Assembly: GCA_035536715.1 (NCBI GenBank)
Contig: DATLNO010000077.1
Location: 9,221 to 73,220, forward strand
Origin: Solirubrobacteraceae bacterium
Lineage (GTDB): Bacteria > Actinomycetota > Thermoleophilia > Solirubrobacterales > Solirubrobacteraceae
Reading direction: 5' to 3'
DNA length: 64,000 nucleotides
Shown: positions 6,824 through 16,476 of the stretch, in pieces
Position numbering within the stretch: the stretch's first letter is position 1
Layout of the letters: the number at the start of each line of letters is the position of its first letter
Notes under the pieces: generated by a model
What the model was told of the DNA's origin: nothing
What the model saw: the letters and a program-made list of their open reading frames with translations, nothing else
The model's database searches: none
Made by a program: the position numbers and the translations under genes

Positions 6824-7093
6824 CGACCTTTCGACCGACGGGCGATCTACGGCGCGGCGAATTTGGACAGGCGTCGATGGGAGACCTCTGGAGCGGGCCG
6901 TACCGTCGATGCATCACCGTCGACGAGCTCTCCCGTCGCCGGCGGCGACAACCTGGCGCGCGTGATGATCGCCACGCAGCAGCGCCGCAATGCCGAGGGC
7001 AACGGCCGGGACCGTCCATCTCCCGGTCCCGGCCGGTCCTCGTCCTCGTGCTCACACCGCATCTCCGTCCCGCGGGCGGGTACGGTCCCAATC

Positions 7094-8590
7094 GTGATCC
7101 TCGCGATCGACCAGGGGACGACCGGCACGACCTGCCTCGTCTTCGACGAGTCCGCGCAGCTCGCCGGCCGCGCCTATCGGGAGTTCGGTCAGCACTTTCC
7201 GCGCCCCGGCTGGGTCGAGCATGACGCCGCTGAGATCTGGGACACGACCGTCGCCGTGGCGCAGGACGCGCTCGACGACGCCGATGTCGCCGACGGCGAG
7301 CTGCAGGCGATCGGGATCACGAACCAGCGCGAGACCGTCTGCGTCTGGGATCCCGGCACCGGAGAGCCGCTGCACCGCGCGCTCGTCTGGCAGGACCGCC
7401 GCACCGCCGCGCGCTGCGACGAGCTGCGCGCCGCCGGGCACGAGGCGCTCGTGCGCACCCGCAGCGGGCTCGTGCTCGACCCGTACTTCAGCGCCACGAA
7501 GATCGAGTGGATGCTCGACAACGTCGACGGCCTGCGCGAGAAGGCGCAGGACGGCGGCGCCGTCTTCGGCACGATCGACGCCTGGCTCGTCTTCAAGCTC
7601 ACCGGCGAGCTGCGCACGGATGCGACGAACGCGTCGCGCACGATGCTCTACGACATCAACCGCGGCGACTGGGACGACGAGCTGCTGGCGCTGTTCGGCG
7701 ACGTGCCACGCGCCGCGCTGCCCGAGGTGCTGCCGAGCATCGGCGAGTTCGGCACGCTGCGCGACGGCGCGCTGGGCGGCCACGACGGTGTCCCCGTCAG
7801 CGGCATCGCGGGCGACCAGCAGGCGGCGCTCTACGGCCAGGGCTGCCTCGAACCGGGCCTCGGCAAGAACACGTACGGCACCGGCTCCTTCGTCCTGCTC
7901 AACTCCGGCGAGAGCGTGCCCACCGCGCCGCCCGGGCTGCTCGCGACCGTCGCGTGGGAACACGGATCGCCATCCGACCGCCGGACGGTCTATGCGCTCG
8001 AAGCCGCGATCTTCGTCACCGGCGCCGCCGTGCAGTGGCTACGCGACGGCCTGGGGATCATCGAGCAGGCGGCCGAGACCGAGCAACTCGCCGGCTCGCT
8101 GGACGCCAACGACGGCGTCTATTTCGTGCCCGCGCTGACGGGCCTCGGCTCGCCGCACTGGGATCCGTATGCGCGCGGGACGATCGTCGGGCTCACGCGC
8201 GGGAGCACCAAGGCGCACATCGCGCGCGCGACGCTCGAGGCGATCGCGTACCAGACCGTCGACGCCGTCCAGGCGATGGAGTCCGCCTCCGGCCGGCCGC
8301 TCGAGGAATTACGCGCCGACGGCGGCGCGACCGAAAACGCCTGGCTCATGCAGTTTCAGTCCGACATGCTCGGCGTGCCTGTCGCGGTCGCCGAGCTGGC
8401 CGAGACGACCGCGCTCGGCGCGGCGCTGCTGGCGGGCGTCGGCGTCGGCGCGTGGACGCAGGACGATGTCGCCCGCCGCGACGCGACGGGCGCGCGCTAC
8501 GAGCCGCAGATGGGGCAGGACGAGCGCGAGGAGCTCCTGCAGCAGTGGCGCCGCGCCGTGCAGCGTTCCGGTGGATGGGCGCGGGGGTAA
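7094..8590 (+). CDS. glpK: glycerol kinase
   Basis: ILAIDQGTTGTT..., ITNQRETVCVWD, GDQQAALYGQ and GTGSFVL are FGGY kinase/GlpK signatures. GTG at 7094 gives about 498 aa; the upstream part of the track ORF is low-complexity. Confidence 0.9.
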   Translation: MILAIDQGTTGTTCLVFDESAQLAGRAYREFGQHFPRPGWVEHDAAEIWDTTVAVAQDALDDADVADGELQAIGITNQRETVCVWDPGTGEPLHRALVWQDRRTAARCDELRAAGHEALVRTRSGLVLDPYFSATKIEWMLDNVDGLREKAQDGGAVFGTIDAWLVFKLTGELRTDATNASRTMLYDINRGDWDDELLALFGDVPRAALPEVLPSIGEFGTLRDGALGGHDGVPVSGIAGDQQAALYGQGCLEPGLGKNTYGTGSFVLLNSGESVPTAPPGLLATVAWEHGSPSDRRTVYALEAAIFVTGAAVQWLRDGLGIIEQAAETEQLAGSLDANDGVYFVPALTGLGSPHWDPYARGTIVGLTRGSTKAHIARATLEAIAYQTVDAVQAMESASGRPLEELRADGGATENAWLMQFQSDMLGVPVAVAELAETTALGAALLAGVGVGAWTQDDVARRDATGARYEPQMGQDEREELLQQWRRAVQRSGGWARG

Positions 8591-8600
8591 AGTTCTTTTC

Positions 8601-9404
8601 ATGGCGAGACTGAAACGGTCCGAGCAACTCGCGGCGATGGGGTCCGGCGGCCGCGATGAGCGCCCCGCCGAGGACTTCGCCGCCTTCCACGAGCGCTCGC
8701 GCACGCAGGAGCCGGACTTCGCCTACGAGATCGTCCGGGTGCTCACCGGCCTCTGGGCGCTGACGTTCTTCCGCACGCGCACGATCTCCAGCGAGAAGGT
8801 CCCGCAGAGCGGCGCCGTGATCCTGGCCCCCAACCACGGCTCCTTCATGGACCACTTCTTCCTCGCCGCGTTCATCCGCCGCAAGGTCCGTTTCATGGCG
8901 AAGTCGCAACTCTTCCAGCCGCCGCTGCAGTACGTCTACTCGCACGGCGGCGTGTTTCCGCTGCGCCGCGGCCACCGCGACGAGGAGGCGTTCATCACGG
9001 CGCGGAAGATCCTCGAGCGCGAGGGCGCCGTCGCGATGTACTGCGAAGGGGCGCGCTCACGCGACGGCACGCTGTCCCAGCGCCCGAAGCCGGGCATCGG
9101 CAAGCTCGCGCTGCAGACCGGCGCACCCGTCGTGCCGGTCGCGATCCACGGCTCGGCGAAGGTGCGCAACTGGCGCCGCGGGCAGTTCCCGAAGGTCACC
9201 GTCCAGTACGGCGACCCGATCCACTGGGAGCGTGTCGAGGACCCGACGCGTGATCAGCAGATGGCTGTCGCGGAGGAGATCTTCGGCGAGATCAAGGTCC
9301 TCCACTCGGGCCTCGAGACGCTTGGCCGCAAGGGCGTGCTGCAGCGCCTGCGCGAGCAGCGCCGGTCCGAACGGCGCGGCAAGAAGCGCACGGCGACCGC
9401 GTAG
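8601..9404 (+). CDS. 1-acyl-sn-glycerol-3-phosphate acyltransferase family protein
   Basis: PNHGSFMDHF (the HX4D acyltransferase motif) and YCEGARSRDG (block III). ATG at 8601. Confidence 0.8.
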   Translation: MARLKRSEQLAAMGSGGRDERPAEDFAAFHERSRTQEPDFAYEIVRVLTGLWALTFFRTRTISSEKVPQSGAVILAPNHGSFMDHFFLAAFIRRKVRFMAKSQLFQPPLQYVYSHGGVFPLRRGHRDEEAFITARKILEREGAVAMYCEGARSRDGTLSQRPKPGIGKLALQTGAPVVPVAIHGSAKVRNWRRGQFPKVTVQYGDPIHWERVEDPTRDQQMAVAEEIFGEIKVLHSGLETLGRKGVLQRLREQRRSERRGKKRTATA

Positions 9405-9494: not shown

Positions 9495-10808
9495 TCAGGG
9501 CACCTGCGGGTGCGCGTGTGCGCGCGCGTCGGGCAGCGCGAACGGCGCGGCGGGGTCGTCGCGGCGCTCGAGCATCCGCGTCTCGCGCGGCAGCAGCCCG
9601 AGCCCCAGGGCGACGAACGCGACGGCTGCGCCGCCGAGCAGCACCTCGGTCGCGCCGAACGCCTCGGCGGCCGGGCCGGCGAGCACGTAGCCCAGCGGCA
9701 CGAGCCCGAGTGAGACCGTCCAGTCATACGACGTGACGCGCGAGAGCTTGTCCGGCGGGATCCGCTCCGCGAGCGCCGTCAGCCACAGCACGTCGAACAG
9801 CGAGGCGCCAGTGCCGGAGACGACCATCGCCGGAAGGACGACGCCCAGCGGCGCGCCGATCGCGAAGAGCGCGATCGCTCCCGGCCACAGCAGGATGCAC
9901 GTCATGGCCTGCCGCATCGGGTAGCGCGGCCGCCAGCGCAGCGAGGCGAACGAGCCGGCGACCGTGCCCGCGCCGAACGCGGCGAAGACGTAGCCGAAGA
10001 CGGCGAGGTCGCCGTACTGCTCCTTGGCGACGATCGGCCCGATCACGAACAGCGGCGCGATTGCGCAGAACAGCGCGATGCAGAACGCCGCGAGCGTCGC
10101 CCAGACCCACGCGCGCGAGCGCACCTCTGCGAAGCCGATCCGCACGTCGGCCCAGACCGACGCGGGAGCTGCCGGAGCCGTGCTCGCGGATTCGGCGGCC
10201 TTCGCGGACGCCGCGCGATCGCGCGGTGAGATCCGCACGAGCAGCGCGGCGCTGACGAGAAACGTCAGCGCGTCGATGCCGAACGCCGCCGCCGGGCTGA
10301 AGCCGAGCACGAGCACCGTCGCGAGCGCCGGGCCCGCGAACTCGGCGATGTTCGCGAACATCGTCGTGACGGCGTTGGCCTCCTGGATCTCGTCCTCGGG
10401 TACCGTCTGCGGAAGCAGGCCGCTGGCGGCCGGGCGGTAGAACGCCTCGGCCGAGCCGAACAGCACGCCGATGACGACGAGATGCCAGATGCGGACCTCG
10501 CCGGTGACGATGAGCAGCGCAAGCGCGCCGTGCAGCGCGAAGCGCACGAGGTCGGTCGTCACGACGACGAGATGGCGCGGCAGCCGGTCGGCAAAGACAC
10601 CGCCGACGAGCAGGAAGAAGATCAGCGGCAGGCTGTAGGCGGCCATGACGAAGCCGAGATCGACTGCGCTGCCCGTCAGATCGATGACGAACAGCGCGAT
10701 CGCCACAGTGACGATGCGATCCCCGACGACGCTCGCCGAGTTGCCCAGCCAGAGCAGGCGAAAATCGCGGTGGCGCAGGACGCGCATGAGCTGACGCAGG
10801 CCGGGCAT
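9495..10808 (-). CDS. MFS transporter
   Basis: About 12 hydrophobic segments with N-terminus RDFRLLWLGNSASVVGDR, typical of actinobacterial MFS exporters. ATG at 10808. Last gene of the DUF692 operon. Confidence 0.75.
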   Translation of the reverse strand: MPGLRQLMRVLRHRDFRLLWLGNSASVVGDRIVTVAIALFVIDLTGSAVDLGFVMAAYSLPLIFFLLVGGVFADRLPRHLVVVTTDLVRFALHGALALLIVTGEVRIWHLVVIGVLFGSAEAFYRPAASGLLPQTVPEDEIQEANAVTTMFANIAEFAGPALATVLVLGFSPAAAFGIDALTFLVSAALLVRISPRDRAASAKAAESASTAPAAPASVWADVRIGFAEVRSRAWVWATLAAFCIALFCAIAPLFVIGPIVAKEQYGDLAVFGYVFAAFGAGTVAGSFASLRWRPRYPMRQAMTCILLWPGAIALFAIGAPLGVVLPAMVVSGTGASLFDVLWLTALAERIPPDKLSRVTSYDWTVSLGLVPLGYVLAGPAAEAFGATEVLLGGAAVAFVALGLGLLPRETRMLERRDDPAAPFALPDARAHAHPQVP

Positions 10809-10861
10809 GGTATGCGTCAGCGTGACAGGAGGCGGGCCTGCGGCCCTGGCGGATTCGAACC

Positions 10862-11332
10862 TCAGCCAGGCTCGCCGTGCCAGTAGTCGACCGTGCTCGA
10901 CCGCTGCACGATGACGTCGTCCTCCGTGTTGCCGGTCCAGATCGCGATCTTGTCGCTGTCGGGGTAGACCGTCGCGGCCGGGTGGATGACGGTCGACCAC
11001 ATGAGGACGCGGGCGAGCTCGTCGGCGTCGTTGCGGATCTGATGTGCGCCCTCGGGCCCGAGCGCGAAGAAGACGACATCCTCGGGCTCGAGCTGGTGCG
11101 TGCCCTCGGGGTCGCGTACGGACGGCCGACCGCTGAGAACGAGCAGCCACTCCTCCTCGGCGTACTCGTAGTGGTAGGGGCAGAGCGCCTGGCCCGGTGG
11201 CAGCTCGTAGACGCTCGTGCCCGTCTGCGTGGCGCCGAGCTGCGGGCCGAAGCGAAACAGGCCCGAGCGCGAGCCCGCCGGATCGTCGTCGTCATAGGTG
11301 AATATCGGAGCGGAGATGTTGACGCGGTGCAT
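10862..11332 (-). CDS. cupin domain protein
   Basis: 156 aa. YHYEYAEEEWLLVLSG...PEDVVFFALGPEGAHQIRN matches the cupin G(X)5HxH...E / G(X)5PxG..H..N pattern. Confidence 0.7.
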   Translation of the reverse strand: MHRVNISAPIFTYDDDDPAGSRSGLFRFGPQLGATQTGTSVYELPPGQALCPYHYEYAEEEWLLVLSGRPSVRDPEGTHQLEPEDVVFFALGPEGAHQIRNDADELARVLMWSTVIHPAATVYPDSDKIAIWTGNTEDDVIVQRSSTVDYWHGEPG

Positions 11333-11344
11333 CGCGTCATCGTC

Positions 11345-11839
11345 TCAGCCCGCCCGCCGGCCTCGGCGCAGCAGGCTGCGATGCAGCGTTCCGAGCCGCG
11401 GGATCCGCGCCACGACGAGCAGCCGCGAGCGTGGCCGGCGCAACCAGGCGGCGGCGACGAACACTCCGCGGCGGCGCAGCGTCGCGCGCGCGAGCAGCAG
11501 TTCAGCGCGTGCCTCGTCGCCGAGCTCGGCCCGCGCCTGGAGCGTGCGAGCGAAGGCCAGCCCATCCTCGAGCGGCAAGCCGGACCGGGGTGCGGCGACG
11601 GCCCGCGCGAACGCGTCGAAGCGCGTCGCGAAGGTGTCGCCGAGCTCCAGCGCGAGCGCGGGCCACGCGAGCGCGACGAGGCGCCCGCGCTTGCGCCGCA
11701 GCGAGCTGCCGGCCGCACCGGCCTGCACGGCGTCGAATCCCGGCGGGGGCTCGTCGCCGCGCAGGAGCGCGTCGAGCAGCTGCGCCTGGCGCGCGGCGTA
11801 GGCCTCGCGGTCAGGCGCGGACACGGTGCTCGCTTCCAT
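11345..11839 (-). CDS. hypothetical partner protein of the DUF692 enzyme
   Basis: In-frame ATG at 11839 (MEASTVSAPDREAYAARQAQLLDALL...), or GTG at 11825. It overlaps the DUF692 stop by 15-29 nt. It is helical and Arg/Ala-rich, and I did not recognise a family with confidence. Confidence 0.5.
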   Translation of the reverse strand: MEASTVSAPDREAYAARQAQLLDALLRGDEPPPGFDAVQAGAAGSSLRRKRGRLVALAWPALALELGDTFATRFDAFARAVAAPRSGLPLEDGLAFARTLQARAELGDEARAELLLARATLRRRGVFVAAAWLRRPRSRLLVVARIPRLGTLHRSLLRRGRRAG

Positions 11840-12653
11840 GGCGCACGGCGCCGGCGATCGCCTCAAGCTCCGCGGCGAACTCGGCCTCCGGGGGAAAGTC
11901 GTCGTCGCGCTCGAGCAGCACGCCGGGCACGTCGGTGAGCGAGAACAGCTCCTCCACGAGATGCAGCACACCCGGCACGACCGGATCGGCGTGCGTGTCG
12001 TGGTAGACGCCCTCGCGGAAGCAGCCGCCGCCGACGTGCACGTAGGCGATCCGCTCCAGCGGGAAGCGCTCGAGCGACTCGAGCGCGTGGTAGCCGTGGT
12101 TGTGCGCGTTGGCATAGAGGTTGGAAAGGTCGAGCAGCAGCAGCGCGCCCGTGCGCTCGATCAGCTCGCTGACGAACGTCGCCTCGTCCATCTCGGCACC
12201 CGGCCACTGCACGAGCGTCGCGACGTGCTCGAGCGCGAGCGGCACGGGCAGCGCATCCTGGGCGATCGCGACGTTCTCGCTGAGGATGTCCAGGGCCTCG
12301 CGTGTGCGCGGGACCGGCAGCAGGTGCCCGGACTCGCGACCGTCGGCGCGCACGAACGCGATGTGCTCGCTGACGAGCGGCGCGCCGACACGCTGTGCGA
12401 CCGAAGCGAGGTGCGCCAGCCGGCCGCGATCCGGCCGCTCGGCGCCGCCGAGCGACAGGCTCACTCCGTGCGGAACGACCTGCAGGCCACGCTGCATCGC
12501 GGTCGCCACGCCGGCGGGCAGAGCGTGCGCGCCGATCGCCTCCGCGACGACCTCGATGAAGCCCAGCCCGTCGGCGCGCGCGATCGCGCCATCGAGTTGT
12601 GGGCGCCAGCCGGCGCCCTGTCCGAGCTGCCATGTCACGCGTGTCGTGTTCAT
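11811..12653 (-). CDS. DUF692 family protein (MbnB/TglH/HvfB-like multinuclear non-heme iron enzyme, TIM-barrel)
   Basis: 280 aa. GLGFIEVVAE..., VVPHGVSLSLGG, PLVSEHIAF, LALEHVA, LLLDLSNLYANAHNHG and YVHVGGG fit the DUF692/xylose-isomerase-like fold. ATG at 12653 lies 1 nt after the upstream stop. Confidence 0.8.
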   Translation of the reverse strand: MNTTRVTWQLGQGAGWRPQLDGAIARADGLGFIEVVAEAIGAHALPAGVATAMQRGLQVVPHGVSLSLGGAERPDRGRLAHLASVAQRVGAPLVSEHIAFVRADGRESGHLLPVPRTREALDILSENVAIAQDALPVPLALEHVATLVQWPGAEMDEATFVSELIERTGALLLLDLSNLYANAHNHGYHALESLERFPLERIAYVHVGGGCFREGVYHDTHADPVVPGVLHLVEELFSLTDVPGVLLERDDDFPPEAEFAAELEAIAGAVRHGSEHRVRA

Positions 12654-12654
12654 C

Positions 12655-13602
12655 TCAGCCACCTCCTCCGCCGCCGCATCCGCCGCCACCGCCGCCACCG
12701 CCGCATCCGCCGCCGCCACTGCCGCCGTCGCTCGCTGCGCCGGCGCAGCCACCCACGCCGCCACCGCCACCGCAGCCGCCGGAGCGGTGCGAGCCCCACC
12801 AGCCGTTGTTGGACTCGTCCTCACGCGGGACGCCGAGCGCCGACGCGATCGCCGGGTCGGCGAGCCACAGAGCGCCGCCGCCGAACAGCGCCACCGAGAG
12901 CGCGCCCTCGCCGGCCAGCGGGTGGCGGCGCAGCTGCTCGTTCTCCCGGCGCAGCCGGCCGAGCACGTCGCGCCCGCGGTTCGTGGCGACCGGCCGCCGG
13001 CGCAGGAGCCAGACGGTCGCGAACGCGACGACGAGCGTGATCGCGGCGGTCCAGCCGGTCGCCGCGCCGTTCTGCCATCCCGCGACGACCCGCGCGAGGC
13101 CGAGCGCCACGAGCAGCGCGCCCACGATCCACAGGCGCCGCACCCGCGCCGCCTGCTGCTCGTCGAGCAGGAGGCCCGACCGGGTCAGCCGCTCGGACAT
13201 CGACGCGAGCACGTCGTCCTCCCTGACCGCGCGGCGCAGCGCCGTGGTGCTGATGCCCGGCTCGCGGCGGACGACCTCGAAGACGGTCCGCTCGACCGGA
13301 TCGGCGCCCGGACCCAGCTCGCCGGAGACCTTCAGCGTGCCCTCGCGCCGGCGGACCCGCAGCACGTGGTCGCCGTGCAGGCACGTGAGCGCGCTCGTGA
13401 TCGCGAGCTGCGTTCCGCCGCTGAGCAGCGCCAGCTCATAGACGCCGAGGTCGGGCAACGGGTCTGCGCTGTGCTCCCTGCGCCCGATCGCCTCGTGCCA
13501 CTGCCACCAGATCGCGACCATCGCGACCAGGCAGAGCACGCCGTAGCCCGTCAGGAACTGCGTCTCGGTGATTCCCCAGGTTGTCGTCGCTGTCGTGAGC
13601 AT
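12655..13602 (-). CDS. membrane protein (TIGR04222-like) with a C-terminal Gly/Cys-only tail
   Basis: ATG at 13602 preceded by GGAG. It has 3-4 TM segments. The final 40 aa or so are SGGCGGGGGVGGCAGAASDGGSGGGGCGGGGGGGGCGGGGGG (4 Cys). Confidence 0.7.
   Translation of the reverse strand: MLTTATTTWGITETQFLTGYGVLCLVAMVAIWWQWHEAIGRREHSADPLPDLGVYELALLSGGTQLAITSALTCLHGDHVLRVRRREGTLKVSGELGPGADPVERTVFEVVRREPGISTTALRRAVREDDVLASMSERLTRSGLLLDEQQAARVRRLWIVGALLVALGLARVVAGWQNGAATGWTAAITLVVAFATVWLLRRRPVATNRGRDVLGRLRRENEQLRRHPLAGEGALSVALFGGGALWLADPAIASALGVPREDESNNGWWGSHRSGGCGGGGGVGGCAGAASDGGSGGGGCGGGGGGGGCGGGGGG
12658..12785. repeat. low-complexity GCC/GCA/CCG triplet tract encoding the Gly/Cys tail
   Basis: Plus strand reads cctcctccgccgccgcatccgccgccaccgccgccaccgccgcatccgccgccgccactgccgcc... 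The imperfect triplet repeats also supply the GGAGG-like RBS for the DUF692 gene. Confidence 0.6.
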
Positions 13603-13794
13603 GAGCACAACTCCGTTCGTTGCACTGTGAAAGGGCACGTTGTGTTGGTGTGAACGAGGCGAAGAATGGAGTGGCGATGCCCGACCCGCCACGCCTCGGA
13701 GCCTGCTCTCTCACGACCGGCGGGCGACGTTCGCGCAGTTGTCCCGTCACCCCCGACGTTGATCCGACGCGAATCCGACGCTACGGTGGCTGGC

Positions 13795-14922
13795 GTGAGC
13801 ACGCGTTCGGGTGACCTGGCGGACGAGCTCAAGCAGGTCATCCGCCTCGCCGGCCGCGACCCGGAGGCGCTCGAAACGGCGCTGCCGGTGCTGTCGGGCT
13901 TCCACCGTGCGGCGAGCGTCGACGCCCTCGACGAGCCCGCGCGTGTGCACTTCATCCTGCGCCGCCTGATCCCCGAATACCTCGACCGCCTCCCGGCCGG
14001 CCGCGATTGCAGAGCGATCCGCGAGCTGATGACCTGGGAGGACGAGGACGGTGAGTCGCAGTCGCTCACGACGCGCTACCACAAAGCCGCCGCGCATCTC
14101 GTCAACGCGGCGTCCGATTTCGGGCGCCGCCAGGAGCCGCGGCTGCTGGCCGAATGCGCCCGGCGCTTCATCGCCTTCGACCACGAGGACCGGCTCGGCG
14201 CCGGCGCCCCGGCAGGAGAGGTCGCGGCAGCCCTGCCGAGCGCGCCGGTCGTCATGGGGGCCGATCGGGGACACGCGCCGCCGCCCCTGCCACCGGTCCA
14301 ATCCGACGCCGTTGCCGGCGCGGTCGCAGTCGACGCCGGGATCGTCCAGGTGCACAAGAACCTCGACTACCACCTGCTCGTCGACCTGATGGTCGACGCC
14401 GAGGAGATCGTGATCCTCAACACGTGGATCCCGGAGCTGAACATCCTCGACGACGCGCTCGTCGACGCGCTCGCGCGCGGCACGTACGTCTCGATCCTCA
14501 TGCTCTATCCCGACTCGCACATCGCCCAGTTGCGCAGCGAGGCGCTGCAGGGCGTCAACCAGGCGCGCGTCCGGGAGGACCGCGTCAAGCCCGGCGTGCG
14601 TCACTGCCTCGAGGTGCTCGCAGCGATCGCTCGCACCGCCGGCGACGAGGGGCGCCGCCGCCTGCGGGTCAGGCTCTACCATTCGCTCCCGTCGATCTCT
14701 GTCTACGGCGTCGACGACCGGGCGTTCTTCAGCGTCTTCCTGCACGGTCAGCTCGCCGTCAAGTCGCCGCAGATCGAGGTCCTGGGACAGGAGTCGCTGA
14801 TGGGTCGGCTCGTCTTCCGCGAGCTTGAGACGCTCTGGGAGACCGGACATGAATTCGAGGATCTGGAGCAATGGCAGACGGAGCTGGAGGACATGGGCCG
14901 GAAGTTCGGGTTCGGTTCCTGA
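13795..14922 (+). CDS. hypothetical protein; the C-terminal half resembles a PLD-like/DUF5919-type domain
   Basis: The ORF is open from 13666; GTG at 13795 is an alternative start. C-terminal pattern: IVILNTWIP...YVSILMLYPDS...LYHSLPSISVYGVDDRAFFSVFLHG. It is divergent from the DUF692 operon. Confidence 0.45.
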   Translation: MSTRSGDLADELKQVIRLAGRDPEALETALPVLSGFHRAASVDALDEPARVHFILRRLIPEYLDRLPAGRDCRAIRELMTWEDEDGESQSLTTRYHKAAAHLVNAASDFGRRQEPRLLAECARRFIAFDHEDRLGAGAPAGEVAAALPSAPVVMGADRGHAPPPLPPVQSDAVAGAVAVDAGIVQVHKNLDYHLLVDLMVDAEEIVILNTWIPELNILDDALVDALARGTYVSILMLYPDSHIAQLRSEALQGVNQARVREDRVKPGVRHCLEVLAAIARTAGDEGRRRLRVRLYHSLPSISVYGVDDRAFFSVFLHGQLAVKSPQIEVLGQESLMGRLVFRELETLWETGHEFEDLEQWQTELEDMGRKFGFGS

Positions 14923-15620
14923 GCGCCGACGCCGCTGAGGCCGAGCTGCTGGCCGAGTTCACCGGGCACCCGCTGTTCGCGGCGATCGACGGACTCGACG
15001 GGGCTGCGTTCCGCGAGGTCCTGCTGCAGCGCCGCTTCCTGTCGCTGCTGTTTCCCGTCGTCTACGACATCGGCATCGACGGGCTTGCCGACGCGGCGTC
15101 GACGCGGCTCGTACGGGAGATCCTGCGCGAGGAGTACCCGGACCCGACCGGGGCAACGCCGTCGCATCGCGAGGACCTCGTCGGCGACCTCCTCGCACTG
15201 GGAGCGACGCGCGAGCAGATCATGGATGCGCGGCCGAGCGCCGTCACCGCGAGCGTCGTGCAGGAGACGCTCGCGCTGATGCTCGACGCTGCGGCGGCGC
15301 CTGGCGACGCGGCCGTGCTGGCGATCCTGCGCTTTTGGGGCGAGGTGCTGGTGTCGGTCGAGTACGGCGAGTTCTGGCGCCGGATGGAGGGCGAGCTCGA
15401 GGCGGCCGGCGCGACCTCACGCTTCTACCACCCGCATCACCACCACGACGGCCGGGAGCCGCTCGCAGCGGCGTCGGACGACTCGGCGACCCACTCGGGG
15501 CGGCTCGGCGCGTGCCTGGTGCGATCGCTGGAGCATGAAAGCGGTGCGGTGGAGGAGCACGCGCGCGTCGAGCGCGCGGTGCTCGCGGCGCGGATGCGTT
15601 TCTACGACCAGTTCTGCTGA
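14871..15620 (+). CDS. heme-oxygenase-like fold protein (TenA/PqqC/iron-containing redox enzyme family), putative di-iron oxidase
   Basis: All-helical. Acidic/His clusters LREEYPD...SHREDL, FWGEVLVSVEYGEFW and FYHPHHHHDGRE. The first 10 codons or so have poor GC3, so the true start is probably a little downstream of 14871. Confidence 0.45.
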   Translation: MADGAGGHGPEVRVRFLSADAAEAELLAEFTGHPLFAAIDGLDGAAFREVLLQRRFLSLLFPVVYDIGIDGLADAASTRLVREILREEYPDPTGATPSHREDLVGDLLALGATREQIMDARPSAVTASVVQETLALMLDAAAAPGDAAVLAILRFWGEVLVSVEYGEFWRRMEGELEAAGATSRFYHPHHHHDGREPLAAASDDSATHSGRLGACLVRSLEHESGAVEEHARVERAVLAARMRFYDQFC

Positions 15621-16104: not shown

Positions 16105-16476
16105 TCAGCGCGCCCAGGGAACTTCGACCGAGTCCTCCTGTGGCGCGTCGCGTGCGACGACGTACTCGGCAGCCTCGGTCTCGGAGGGGTTGTCGAGCTG
16201 GTGCGTCTCGCGCGGCGGGACGTACACCATGTCGCCGGGCTCGAGCGTGAGCGAGTGCTCGAGCTCCTCGCCCCAGCGCACGTTCAGGCGGCCGTGCAGC
16301 ATGTAGACGGCCGACTCGCACTCGGCGTGGTAGTGCGGTCGCGACTGCGCGCCGGCCGGCACCCGGAAGACGCCCATGTAGATGTGCGACGCGCCGGTCG
16401 TGGCCTGCGACACCTCCGCGCCGCCGACGACGCCGCGCGGCACGACATGGTCTGGACCTGGCTTGACGACCTGCAC
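16105..16476 (-). CDS. cupin domain protein
   Basis: 123 aa with RPHYHAECESAVYMLHG...GDMVYVPPRETHQ, the two cupin motifs. GTG start. Confidence 0.7.
   Translation of the reverse strand: MQVVKPGPDHVVPRGVVGGAEVSQATTGASHIYMGVFRVPAGAQSRPHYHAECESAVYMLHGRLNVRWGEELEHSLTLEPGDMVYVPPRETHQLDNPSETEAAEYVVARDAPQEDSVEVPWAR

Follow-up and report, generated by a model that had tools for sequence, protein, structure and literature searches.

The enzymes of the MNIO family (oxidative enzymes that depend on multinuclear non-heme iron, DUF692) that have been characterized all act on small soluble peptides or proteins. Candidate substrates among membrane proteins were put forward by Antoine et al. (Microb Genom 2025), who gathered more than 3,500 TIGR04222 proteins at <90% identity (PMC12452194). 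From this in silico work, the C-proximal Cys-rich segments of some of these proteins were proposed to be substrates of the adjacent MNIO, with partners of the 'PME-type 2' kind (PMC12452194). In the literature that we searched, TIGR04222 proteins are discussed together with MNIOs solely in this paper and its preprint. Here we describe such a locus in a 64,000-nucleotide (nt) stretch of DNA from a Solirubrobacteraceae bacterium (assembly GCA_035536715.1, contig DATLNO010000077.1, positions 9,221 to 73,220), which is referred to below as the window. The locus encodes a TIGR04222 membrane protein that ends in a Gly/Cys tail (g1), an MNIO (g2), a partner protein (g3), a cupin (g4), and an efflux pump (g5). 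An earlier note on this DNA held the class to be uncharacterized. This is true of experiments, but the substrate hypothesis itself was published in silico in 2025 and is therefore not a new idea (PMC12452194).

By family-model score, the closest characterized MNIOs are those of the captophorins, which comprise the bufferins (BufABC), the oxazolin (HvfABC), and the fontiphorin (FonABC). Gadgil et al. (2026) unified the MNIO–PME1 systems under this name and linked them to copper detoxification (PMC13097082). The same study revised the product of HvfB from an oxazolone/thioamide to a 5-thiooxazole (PMC13097082). The oxazolone- or thioamide-like product anticipated in the earlier note is thus dated. 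BufB, HvfB, and FonB-type enzymes make 5-thiooxazoles and prefer a small residue after the cysteine, and FonBC modified an NVCGG motif once (PMC13097082). In FonB, Asp249 acts as the catalytic base (PMC13097082). The systems covered by Gadgil et al. include neither actinobacterial nor membrane-protein examples (PMC13097082).

The locus is laid out as follows, in window positions; all five genes lie on the minus strand, within 9495-13602.

12655..13602, minus strand: g1, TIGR04222 domain-containing membrane protein, putative MNIO substrate (ATG start, 315 amino acids (aa))
11811..12653, minus strand: g2, MNIO (DUF692) enzyme (280 aa; PF05114, 254 bits)
11345..11839, minus strand: g3, MNIO partner, probably of the SCO6045_C family and 'PME-type 2'-like (164 aa if started at ATG 11839, 159 aa if at GTG 11824)
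10862..11332, minus strand: g4, cupin (156 aa; Cupin_2, 34 bits)
9495..10808, minus strand: g5, DHA3-type major facilitator superfamily (MFS) efflux pump (437 aa; MFS_3, MFS_1)
12662..12669, minus strand: Shine-Dalgarno sequence GGAGGAGG of the MNIO gene, read directly, ending 8 nt before the MNIO ATG

The genes are tightly packed and run in one direction. The ATG of the MNIO gene lies exactly 1 nt beyond the TGA of g1 (12657-12655), and its Shine-Dalgarno sequence GGAGGAGG is composed of the final Gly codons of g1, GGA GGA GGT. Both candidate starts of g3 overlap the MNIO stop at 11811. The GTG at 11824, giving 159 aa, is the more likely start, as it matches the NCBI annotation and the N-termini of homologues. 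The cupin begins 12 nt after the partner stop, and the MFS gene 53 nt after the cupin stop. With gaps of 1 nt, an overlap, 12 nt, and 53 nt, there is no space for a hidden small precursor, and such an open reading frame was ruled out. Going by spacing alone, the five genes would form an operon. The earlier note had described five genes, a G/C/A/S/V/D tail with four cysteines, the 1-nt gap, the ribosome-binding site made of Gly codons, the overlapping partner, the cupin, and the MFS gene. Every one of these elements is correct on the minus strand. Its family calls also held: g1 belongs to TIGR04222 (141.7 bits), g2 to PF05114 (254 bits), and the partner is SCO6045-like (PF26136 on a 99%-identical protein).

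Judged from its sequence, this locus is a regular member of the cluster type described in silico in 2025, and nothing essential differs. The TIGR04222–MNIO–'PME-type 2' clusters of Antoine et al. comprise the same three families in the same gene order and in the same phylum. Their 158-residue Micromonospora partner model matches g3 in size, and their TIGR04222 proteins have the same Cys-interspersed Gly/Ser-rich C-terminal segment. Like those clusters, this locus has adjacent TIGR04222 and MNIO genes (here 1 nt apart) and a Cys-rich end (four cysteines in the last 39 residues of g1). Two differences concern topology and partner frequency. Antoine et al. place the large domains outside the cytoplasm and the tail in the periplasm, whereas the positive-inside rule, as applied here, assigns the large domain to the cytoplasm and does not decide the side of the tail. 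The partner is present in at least 10% of the clusters of Antoine et al., but in 29 of the 30 evaluable loci of the subfamily studied here.

The comparison with the captophorins is mixed. Their enzymes have iron ligands and a catalytic Asp identical to those of g2. As here, the substrates are Cys-rich with a small residue after the cysteine, the partner gene directly follows the MNIO gene, and the enzymes are cytoplasmic. Captophorin precursors, however, are small and soluble and bear a Sec signal peptide together with DUF2282, EGKCG, or Cys-Lys motifs, whereas g1, at 315 aa, is integral to the membrane, lacks a signal peptide, and carries a poly-Gly tail. The captophorin partner is a full DUF2063 protein with a RiPP recognition element (RRE; RiPP, peptide made by the ribosome and modified post-translationally). 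It is of the PME1 type and about 260 aa long, in contrast to the SCO6045_C protein of about 160 aa found here, which has no DUF2063 match. Bufferin and captophorin clusters also often contain DoxX, and none was found among the five genes or their neighbours.

Two further systems are informative. The methanobactin enzyme MbnB has the same ligand set as g2, its partner MbnC (7dz9_C) is the top fold match of g3, and in MbnA, too, cysteines beside small residues become a metal-binding heterocycle. Methanobactin differs in that MbnA is a secreted leader–core peptide of 20-30 residues, the products are oxazolone/thioamide groups, dedicated export and uptake genes are present, and g2 scores 37.9 bits against the MbnB model (cutoff 325). 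Neither an MbnC family match nor a short MbnA-like precursor reading frame was found at this locus. For the 3-thiaglutamate system TglHI, TglH aligns with g2 over the catalytic half (73.6 bits) and TglI (8hci_A) is the second-best fold match of the partner. TglH differs in its reaction, the removal of the beta-carbon from one Cys at the C-terminus of a carrier peptide; neither a membrane protein nor a Gly-rich repeat takes part.

We then compared the locus across genomes. Related loci were found with the peptide pattern AL[FY]GG[GA]ALW, with one genome per species, giving 35 loci and a sample restricted to this subfamily. In 31 of these, the MNIO gene immediately follows the TIGR04222 gene. 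Conserved adjacency, on which the earlier note had staked its proposal, is therefore present. A profile search found the partner after the MNIO in 29 loci; one more is cut off by a contig edge. In all loci with an assignable MNIO start, the MNIO gene overlaps the TIGR04222 gene or starts no more than 8 nt after its stop. The switch of the terminal Gly codons to GGA, forming the Shine-Dalgarno sequence, recurs in most close loci. Trios in Micromonospora, Nocardia, Smaragdicoccus, and Mycobacteriales share the three genes and have no other neighbours in common. Among the closer Solirubrobacterales-type loci, the MNIOs are about 71-89% identical, and the N-terminal 261 residues of the neighbouring membrane protein about 43-56%, with one outlier at 83%. 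Five loci (L001, L010, L017, L018, and L028) have one MNIO–partner pair behind two or three TIGR04222 genes in tandem, paralogues that each end in a Gly/Cys tail of their own. This arrangement resembles the multiple precursor genes of RiPP clusters. In one locus (L004, 8946-9762), the MNIO is split across two frames and may be a pseudogene or an assembly error.

The tail and its repeat are located as follows.

12658..12819, minus strand: Gly/Cys tail, g1 residues 262-315, putative modified core; disordered (predicted local distance difference test (pLDDT) 38-47)
12658..12714, minus strand: 27-nt tandem duplication, 2.1 copies, 90% matching (Tandem Repeats Finder), spanning the last two tail cysteines

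The protein ends in ...SGGCGGGGGVGGCAGAASDGGSGGGGCGGGGGGGGCGGGGGG, with cysteines at 277, 286, 300, and 309. Its final 41 residues, GGCGGGGGVGGCAGAASDGGSGGGGCGGGGGGGGCGGGGGG, are exclusively G, C, V, A, S, and D, and each tail cysteine stands in a G-C-G or G-C-A context. A Gly/Cys tail follows the ...VPRE boundary in 118 of 120 g1 homologues, and the boundary itself (V258-P-R260-E) is near-invariant. These tails are 22-57 residues long, with a median of four cysteines (range 1-7), and consist of 57% Gly and 10% Cys. The residue after a tail cysteine is Gly in 81% of cases and otherwise Ser or Ala. A C-G(2-6)-C-Gn terminus is found in 93 of the 118 tails. With tails in 118 of 120 homologues and an adjacent MNIO in 31 of 35 loci, the pattern is not due to chance. 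Tail length and Cys number vary widely even among close homologues. Together with the 27-nt duplication, this suggests that the number of tail cysteines evolves through repeat expansion and contraction. In one homologue (P0022), the tail is apparently read in another frame, giving an Arg/Trp-rich end; this may be a pseudogene or an assembly error.

The enzyme g2 matches PF05114 (MbnB_TglH_ChrH) at 254.2 bits (cutoff 25), over profile positions 2-260 of 263. Among the NCBIfam equivalog models, it scores highest for BufB (182.7 bits, cutoff 310) and HvfB (154.2 bits, cutoff 360), below the cutoff in both cases. Scores for ApyH (109.5 bits), ChrH (68.3 bits), and MbnB are lower. On these scores, g2 is an MNIO nearest the bufferin and oxazolin enzymes, yet a member of neither the BufB nor the HvfB equivalogs. 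The crystallographic iron ligands of MbnB are His54, His90, Glu133, Asp163, Asn166, His192, Asp208, His210, and Glu239 (PMC9060507). Alignments to 3BWW, TglH, and MbnB (7TCR) map these to H62, H97, E142, D175, N178, H206, D219, H221, and E248 of g2. E248 was assigned through the ERD motif, as the ungapped phmmer alignment to MbnB is offset by 2 residues there. D250 aligns with Asp249 of FonB. The nine ligands and the catalytic Asp are invariant in the 31 TIGR04222-linked MNIOs of related loci. A lack of iron ligands, which the earlier note took as grounds for abandoning its proposal, is thus not seen. As the ligands are intact and the neighbours conserved, the tail remains the best substrate candidate.

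The partner was harder to place. No match to g3 was found in Pfam (E up to 10, in a set that excludes PF26136), in NCBIfam, or among PDB sequences, and DUF2063 was not among the hits. PF26136 (SCO6045_C) is precomputed on its 99%-identical protein P0121 and on all 120 homologues among the matches listed. The AlphaFold2 model of g3 (41 sequences, pLDDT 90.5) has five helices followed by a three-stranded sheet. In a Foldseek search of 350,542 PDB chains, its four best matches were MbnC (7dz9_C), TglI (8hci_A), MbnC (7fc0_C), and NGO1945 (3dee), all of them known MNIO partner proteins, with weak statistics (E 0.06-0.3, TM-score 0.39-0.47, probability 0.80-0.96). The model thus fits the 'PME-type 2' definition: a protein encoded after the MNIO that lacks the DUF2063 signature but combines a DUF2063-like helical domain with a truncated RRE. 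A partner profile run against 1.84 billion representative proteins found 960 relatives (E <= 1e-3, 50% clustering). Most of them stand alone, at 145-200 aa. No MNIO–partner fusion was found among the longer partner-like proteins; the only fusions are single cases, to GPP34 (P0268) and to a trypsin-like peptidase domain (P0388). Both may be gene-calling artefacts, and the peptidase fusion would suit a model of tail release, which is taken up below. The literature on SCO6043-6046 yielded one transcriptome table entry and no functional data.

The body of g1 was examined in the same way. It matches NCBIfam TIGR04222 at 141.7 bits (cutoff 43), over profile positions 5-229 of 229, and is 100% identical to an NCBI protein from a Solirubrobacteraceae metagenome-assembled genome, which bears out the term 'actinobacterial' in the earlier note. 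Its AlphaFold2 (AF2) model has a mean pLDDT of 78.8. Kyte-Doolittle hydropathy gives three strong transmembrane (TM) helices (14-32, 157-175, and 182-200). The segments are as follows.

13501..13563, minus strand: TM1, residues 14-34 (Kyte-Doolittle peak 1.65; AF2 helix 13-39)
13162..13443, minus strand: predicted cytoplasmic soluble domain, residues 54-147, built of two winged-helix-like alpha/beta modules (AF2 pLDDT 92-97)
13000..13161, minus strand: TM2 and TM3 as a helical hairpin, residues 148-201, joined by a short outer loop that has no charge (AF2 helices 148-178 and 183-201; Kyte-Doolittle peaks 2.15 and 1.76)
12919..12999, minus strand: Arg-rich loop, residues 202-228 (10 Arg within residues 201-228, by charge count)
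12820..12918, minus strand: juxta-tail segment (...ALSVALFGGGALWLADPAIASALGVPRE), residues 229-261, where g1 is most conserved

Ten arginines follow TM3, while the TM2-TM3 loop and the N-terminal 13 residues contain no Lys or Arg. By the positive-inside rule, the N-terminus is therefore outside and residues 35-156 are inside, which probably places the large soluble domain in the cytoplasm. The N-termini of g2 and g3 are not hydrophobic, which points to a cytoplasmic location for these proteins as well. The label 'winged-helix-like' is taken solely from the order of secondary-structure elements in the model (H-H-E-E, then H-H-H(-E)). A Foldseek search with the whole g1 model gave nothing significant (best match MotA, E 0.18). 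The soluble domain has no Pfam match, and its PDB-sequence search gave a non-significant MarR-type regulator, HosA (E 0.75). No match was found between g1 and the bufferin/captophorin precursor families (DUF2282, Buf_6/12Cys, EGKCG), and the protein begins with a TM helix, not a cleavable signal. The Pfam family DUF2207_C gives a sub-threshold match over TM2-TM3 and part of the basic loop (12.8 bits, cutoff 33), as it does in the homologues P0024 and P0106 (26-27 bits). The relationship to DUF2207 (YciQ-like) membrane proteins is thus not significant. Many DUF2207 proteins also have Gly-rich tail ends; to our knowledge, they have no MNIO link. Two residues are near-invariant (>=90%) in the subfamily: Cys24 within TM1 (13531-13533) and Trp9, in the short N-terminus predicted to be external.

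Conservation in g1 peaks directly ahead of the tail. In residues 229-261, mean column identity is 0.79, as against 0.57-0.65 elsewhere in the protein. Of these 33 columns, 14 are at least 90% identical, and the segment holds 9 of the 19 invariant columns of g1. It is weakly hydrophobic, with a summed insertion free energy of about +5 kcal/mol versus about 0 to +2.8 for TM1-3, and forms three short broken helices in the AF2 model. This segment is a candidate recognition ('leader-like') element that would take the role of a leader peptide ahead of the core. Alternatively, it may be a marginal fourth TM segment or a re-entrant hairpin, and whether it crosses the membrane decides if the tail lies inside or outside.

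These features suggest the following pathway. g1 would insert co-translationally through its three strong TM helices, with the N-terminus out and the winged-helix-like domain and Arg-rich loop in the cytoplasm (step 1). The disordered 54-residue tail would leave the ribosome last, on the cytoplasmic side. The cytoplasmic partner would hold the MNIO through its DUF2063-like helical domain, and its three-stranded sheet, the truncated RRE, would probably bind residues 229-261, as MbnC and RRE domains do; this binding is read from the fold (step 2). The MNIO, presumably tri-iron and O2-dependent, would then oxidize each of the four tail cysteines by four electrons (step 3). As the nearest characterized relatives (BufB, HvfB, and FonB) make 5-thiooxazoles, the expected product by analogy is a 5-thiooxazole, which would lower the mass by 4 Da for each Cys (16 Da for the four) and absorb near 305 nm. 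The outcome would be a membrane-tethered, thiolate-rich tail that chelates metal, by analogy most likely copper. Both the metal and the physiological role of the modified tail are inferred.

The gene anatomy, family membership, catalytic residues, partner fold, adjacency with translational coupling, and conservation pattern of the substrate candidate are what was observed here. From these, we consider it likely that the tail of g1 is modified. Given modification, 5-thiooxazole chemistry is the favoured product on the strength of analogy, with somewhat less assurance. For the explanation as a whole, in which the MNIO and its partner turn the tail cysteines into 5-thiooxazoles, we put the probability at roughly 50%. 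If the tail is shown to be modified, the MNIO family would extend from natural-product biosynthesis to the post-translational modification of a membrane protein, and it would become clear how a substrate can be recognized with neither a leader nor a signal peptide. As the trio is widespread in soil Actinomycetota, its function, probably membrane metal handling, could matter ecologically. The locus adds no principle beyond the 2025 in silico description, and its value is as a clean, compact test case. What the analysis adds are modest refinements: a large domain placed in the cytoplasm, a highly conserved juxta-tail, a Cys number that varies through repeats, a partner found almost throughout this subfamily, and a module that excludes the cupin and MFS genes.

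Several points weigh against this explanation. In 4 of the 35 loci, Cys-rich tails occur with no MNIO within 8 kb, and two Mycobacteriales loci (L024 and L035) carry a DUF1648 membrane protein downstream instead of the MNIO. More broadly, one third of the genomes with TIGR04222 have no MNIO gene (PMC12452194). From the four loci and this one third, TIGR04222–MNIO coupling is therefore frequent, not obligatory. Should residues 229-261 cross the membrane, the tail would come to lie outside, so that modification by a cytoplasmic enzyme would have to precede translocation. The chemistry of MNIOs is diverse, and with g2 below the BufB (310) and HvfB (360) cutoffs, the transfer of 5-thiooxazole formation to this locus is an analogy. 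The poly-Gly tail also offers none of the Glu/Lys determinants that FonB uses. The literature search found no experimental evidence for TIGR04222-linked MNIO systems, and no copper or other metal genes were found within about 7 kb of the trio. The DUF1648 genes (L024, 8684-9820; L035, 8285-9331) may represent another partner context for the same tail.

A bolder form of the explanation treats g1 as a self-contained, membrane-anchored substrate. Here, the winged-helix-like domain and the juxta-tail would replace the leader and make up for the RRE helices that the truncated partner lacks. On the inner side of the membrane, the tail would become a row of thiooxazole metal ligands, and it would either remain in the cytoplasm as a tethered metal buffer or later flip outward via the marginal fourth hydrophobic segment. 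If so, g2 would be the first MNIO known to act on an integral membrane protein, and its substrate would be recognized in a new way. We offer this form tentatively and think it rather unlikely.

Of the other explanations, the one that survives best keeps the tail as substrate and changes the reaction. The product could be an oxazolone/thioamide, a TglH-like excision of the beta-carbon, a cleavage of the N–C-alpha backbone bond that trims or amidates the tail, or a cross-link. In line with this, g2 falls under both equivalog cutoffs, and its partner is of the truncated SCO6045_C type, not DUF2063/PME-type 1, with MbnC and TglI as nearest folds. Captophorin chemistry has been unified for MNIO–PME1 pairs only, and MNIOs outside the main groups carry out diverse reactions. 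On the other hand, the scores of g2 for MbnB, ChrH, and ApyH are far below those for BufB and HvfB, and g2 has kept the catalytic Asp and every ligand, as FonB has. Antoine et al. also put the TIGR04222-linked MNIOs near the bufferin and oxazolin enzymes (PMC12452194). A different chemistry on the same tail is possible but unlikely.

The earlier note allowed for excised products and for further tailoring or export by the cupin and the MFS pump. Extended to a release model, this would mean that the modified tail is cut at ...GVPRE and exported by the MFS pump as a Gly-rich metallophore, with the cupin as an additional tailoring enzyme. The near-invariant V258-P-R260-E boundary would provide a cleavage site, the cupin and MFS genes follow the partner closely here (12 and 53 nt), and the pump resembles EntS and DHA3-type exporters. 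The peptidase-fused partner homologue P0388, a single case that may be an artefact, would also fit. The module contains no conserved protease, however. A peptide of about 54 residues is also a big cargo for an MFS pump.

Comparative genomics bears more directly on the two added genes. Of the 35 loci, 11 have an orthologue of g5 and 6 have one of g4, and all of these are Solirubrobacterales-like. In relatives, genes are inserted between the partner and the cupin–MFS pair: a PIN-domain gene, ApbE with GNAT, PGA_cap, or GST with HxlR. In one relative (L039), the cupin–MFS pair forms a unit of its own beside a divergent HxlR regulator, and in another (L037), two opposite-strand genes part the MFS gene from the trio. 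Neither gene accompanies the trio in Micromonospora, Nocardia, Smaragdicoccus, Mycobacteriales, or further distant loci. As the cupin and MFS genes are patchy and split off by unrelated genes, they are not core, and we rejected them as core members on these grounds. We conclude from these comparisons that the conserved module comprises three genes: TIGR04222, MNIO, and the SCO6045_C partner. The cupin and the pump are probably physical neighbours outside the system, although they may be co-transcribed with the trio in this window. The tailoring and export roles suggested for them in the earlier note are not supported, as the two genes are kept in Solirubrobacterales synteny only. Release of the tail as an exported metallophore is thus improbable.

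Equally doubtful is a model in which no tail is modified. The TIGR04222 protein would serve as a membrane anchor or receptor that recruits the MNIO–partner pair, the tail would bind metal or form disulfides as it is, and the enzyme would act elsewhere. Cys-rich tails do occur with no MNIO nearby, and many TIGR04222 proteins have no Cys or no MNIO neighbour (PMC12452194). The soluble domain resembles a protein- or nucleic-acid-binding winged-helix module. Tight translational coupling suggests a stoichiometry of about 1:1, which is better suited to a complex than to an enzyme–substrate pair. Against this, the locus has no alternative precursor gene, and the characterized MNIOs with partners all act on the product of the adjacent upstream gene. 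The two or three TIGR04222 paralogues ahead of a single MNIO in several genomes likewise look like RiPP precursors. Almost certainly wrong is the view that the genes adjoin through inherited gene order alone and are functionally unrelated: although the surrounding 10 kb is largely plain synteny (glycerol kinase, acyltransferase, second cupin), the trio alone persists in distant Actinomycetota with differing neighbours, and its junctions stay tight or overlapping.

The remaining observations concern the pump and the wider neighbourhood. The cupin matches Cupin_2 at 34 bits and the pump matches MFS_3 and MFS_1 at about 110 bits each, with sub-cutoff matches to TIGR00900 and Tet(V)/EntS-like models. 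MFS fragments at L002 (10381-11013) and L032 (10551-10721) may be pseudogenes or assembly errors. In Solirubrobacterales-like loci, a block of about 10 kb is syntenic and consists of a second cupin, three unknown genes, the trio, the MFS gene, an acyltransferase, and a glycerol kinase. Genes around the locus in the window are as follows.

13666-14922, plus strand: divergent gene, 418 aa, no Pfam/NCBIfam match
14871-15620, plus strand: divergent gene, 249 aa, no Pfam/NCBIfam match, with a His-rich HPHHHHD stretch
16105-16476, minus strand: second, unrelated cupin, 123 aa (Cupin_2, 47.9 bits), with weak similarity to ureidoglycine aminohydrolase, in the same syntenic block
6863-9404, plus strand: glycerol kinase (FGGY) and PlsC-type acyltransferase, converging on the end of the MFS gene, syntenic in Solirubrobacterales

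Within the Solirubrobacterales-like synteny, the 418-aa gene accompanies the trio in nearly all loci and the 249-aa gene in about half; neither is found beside the distant trios. The synteny of the glycerol kinase and acyltransferase shows how far plain conservation of gene order reaches in this region.

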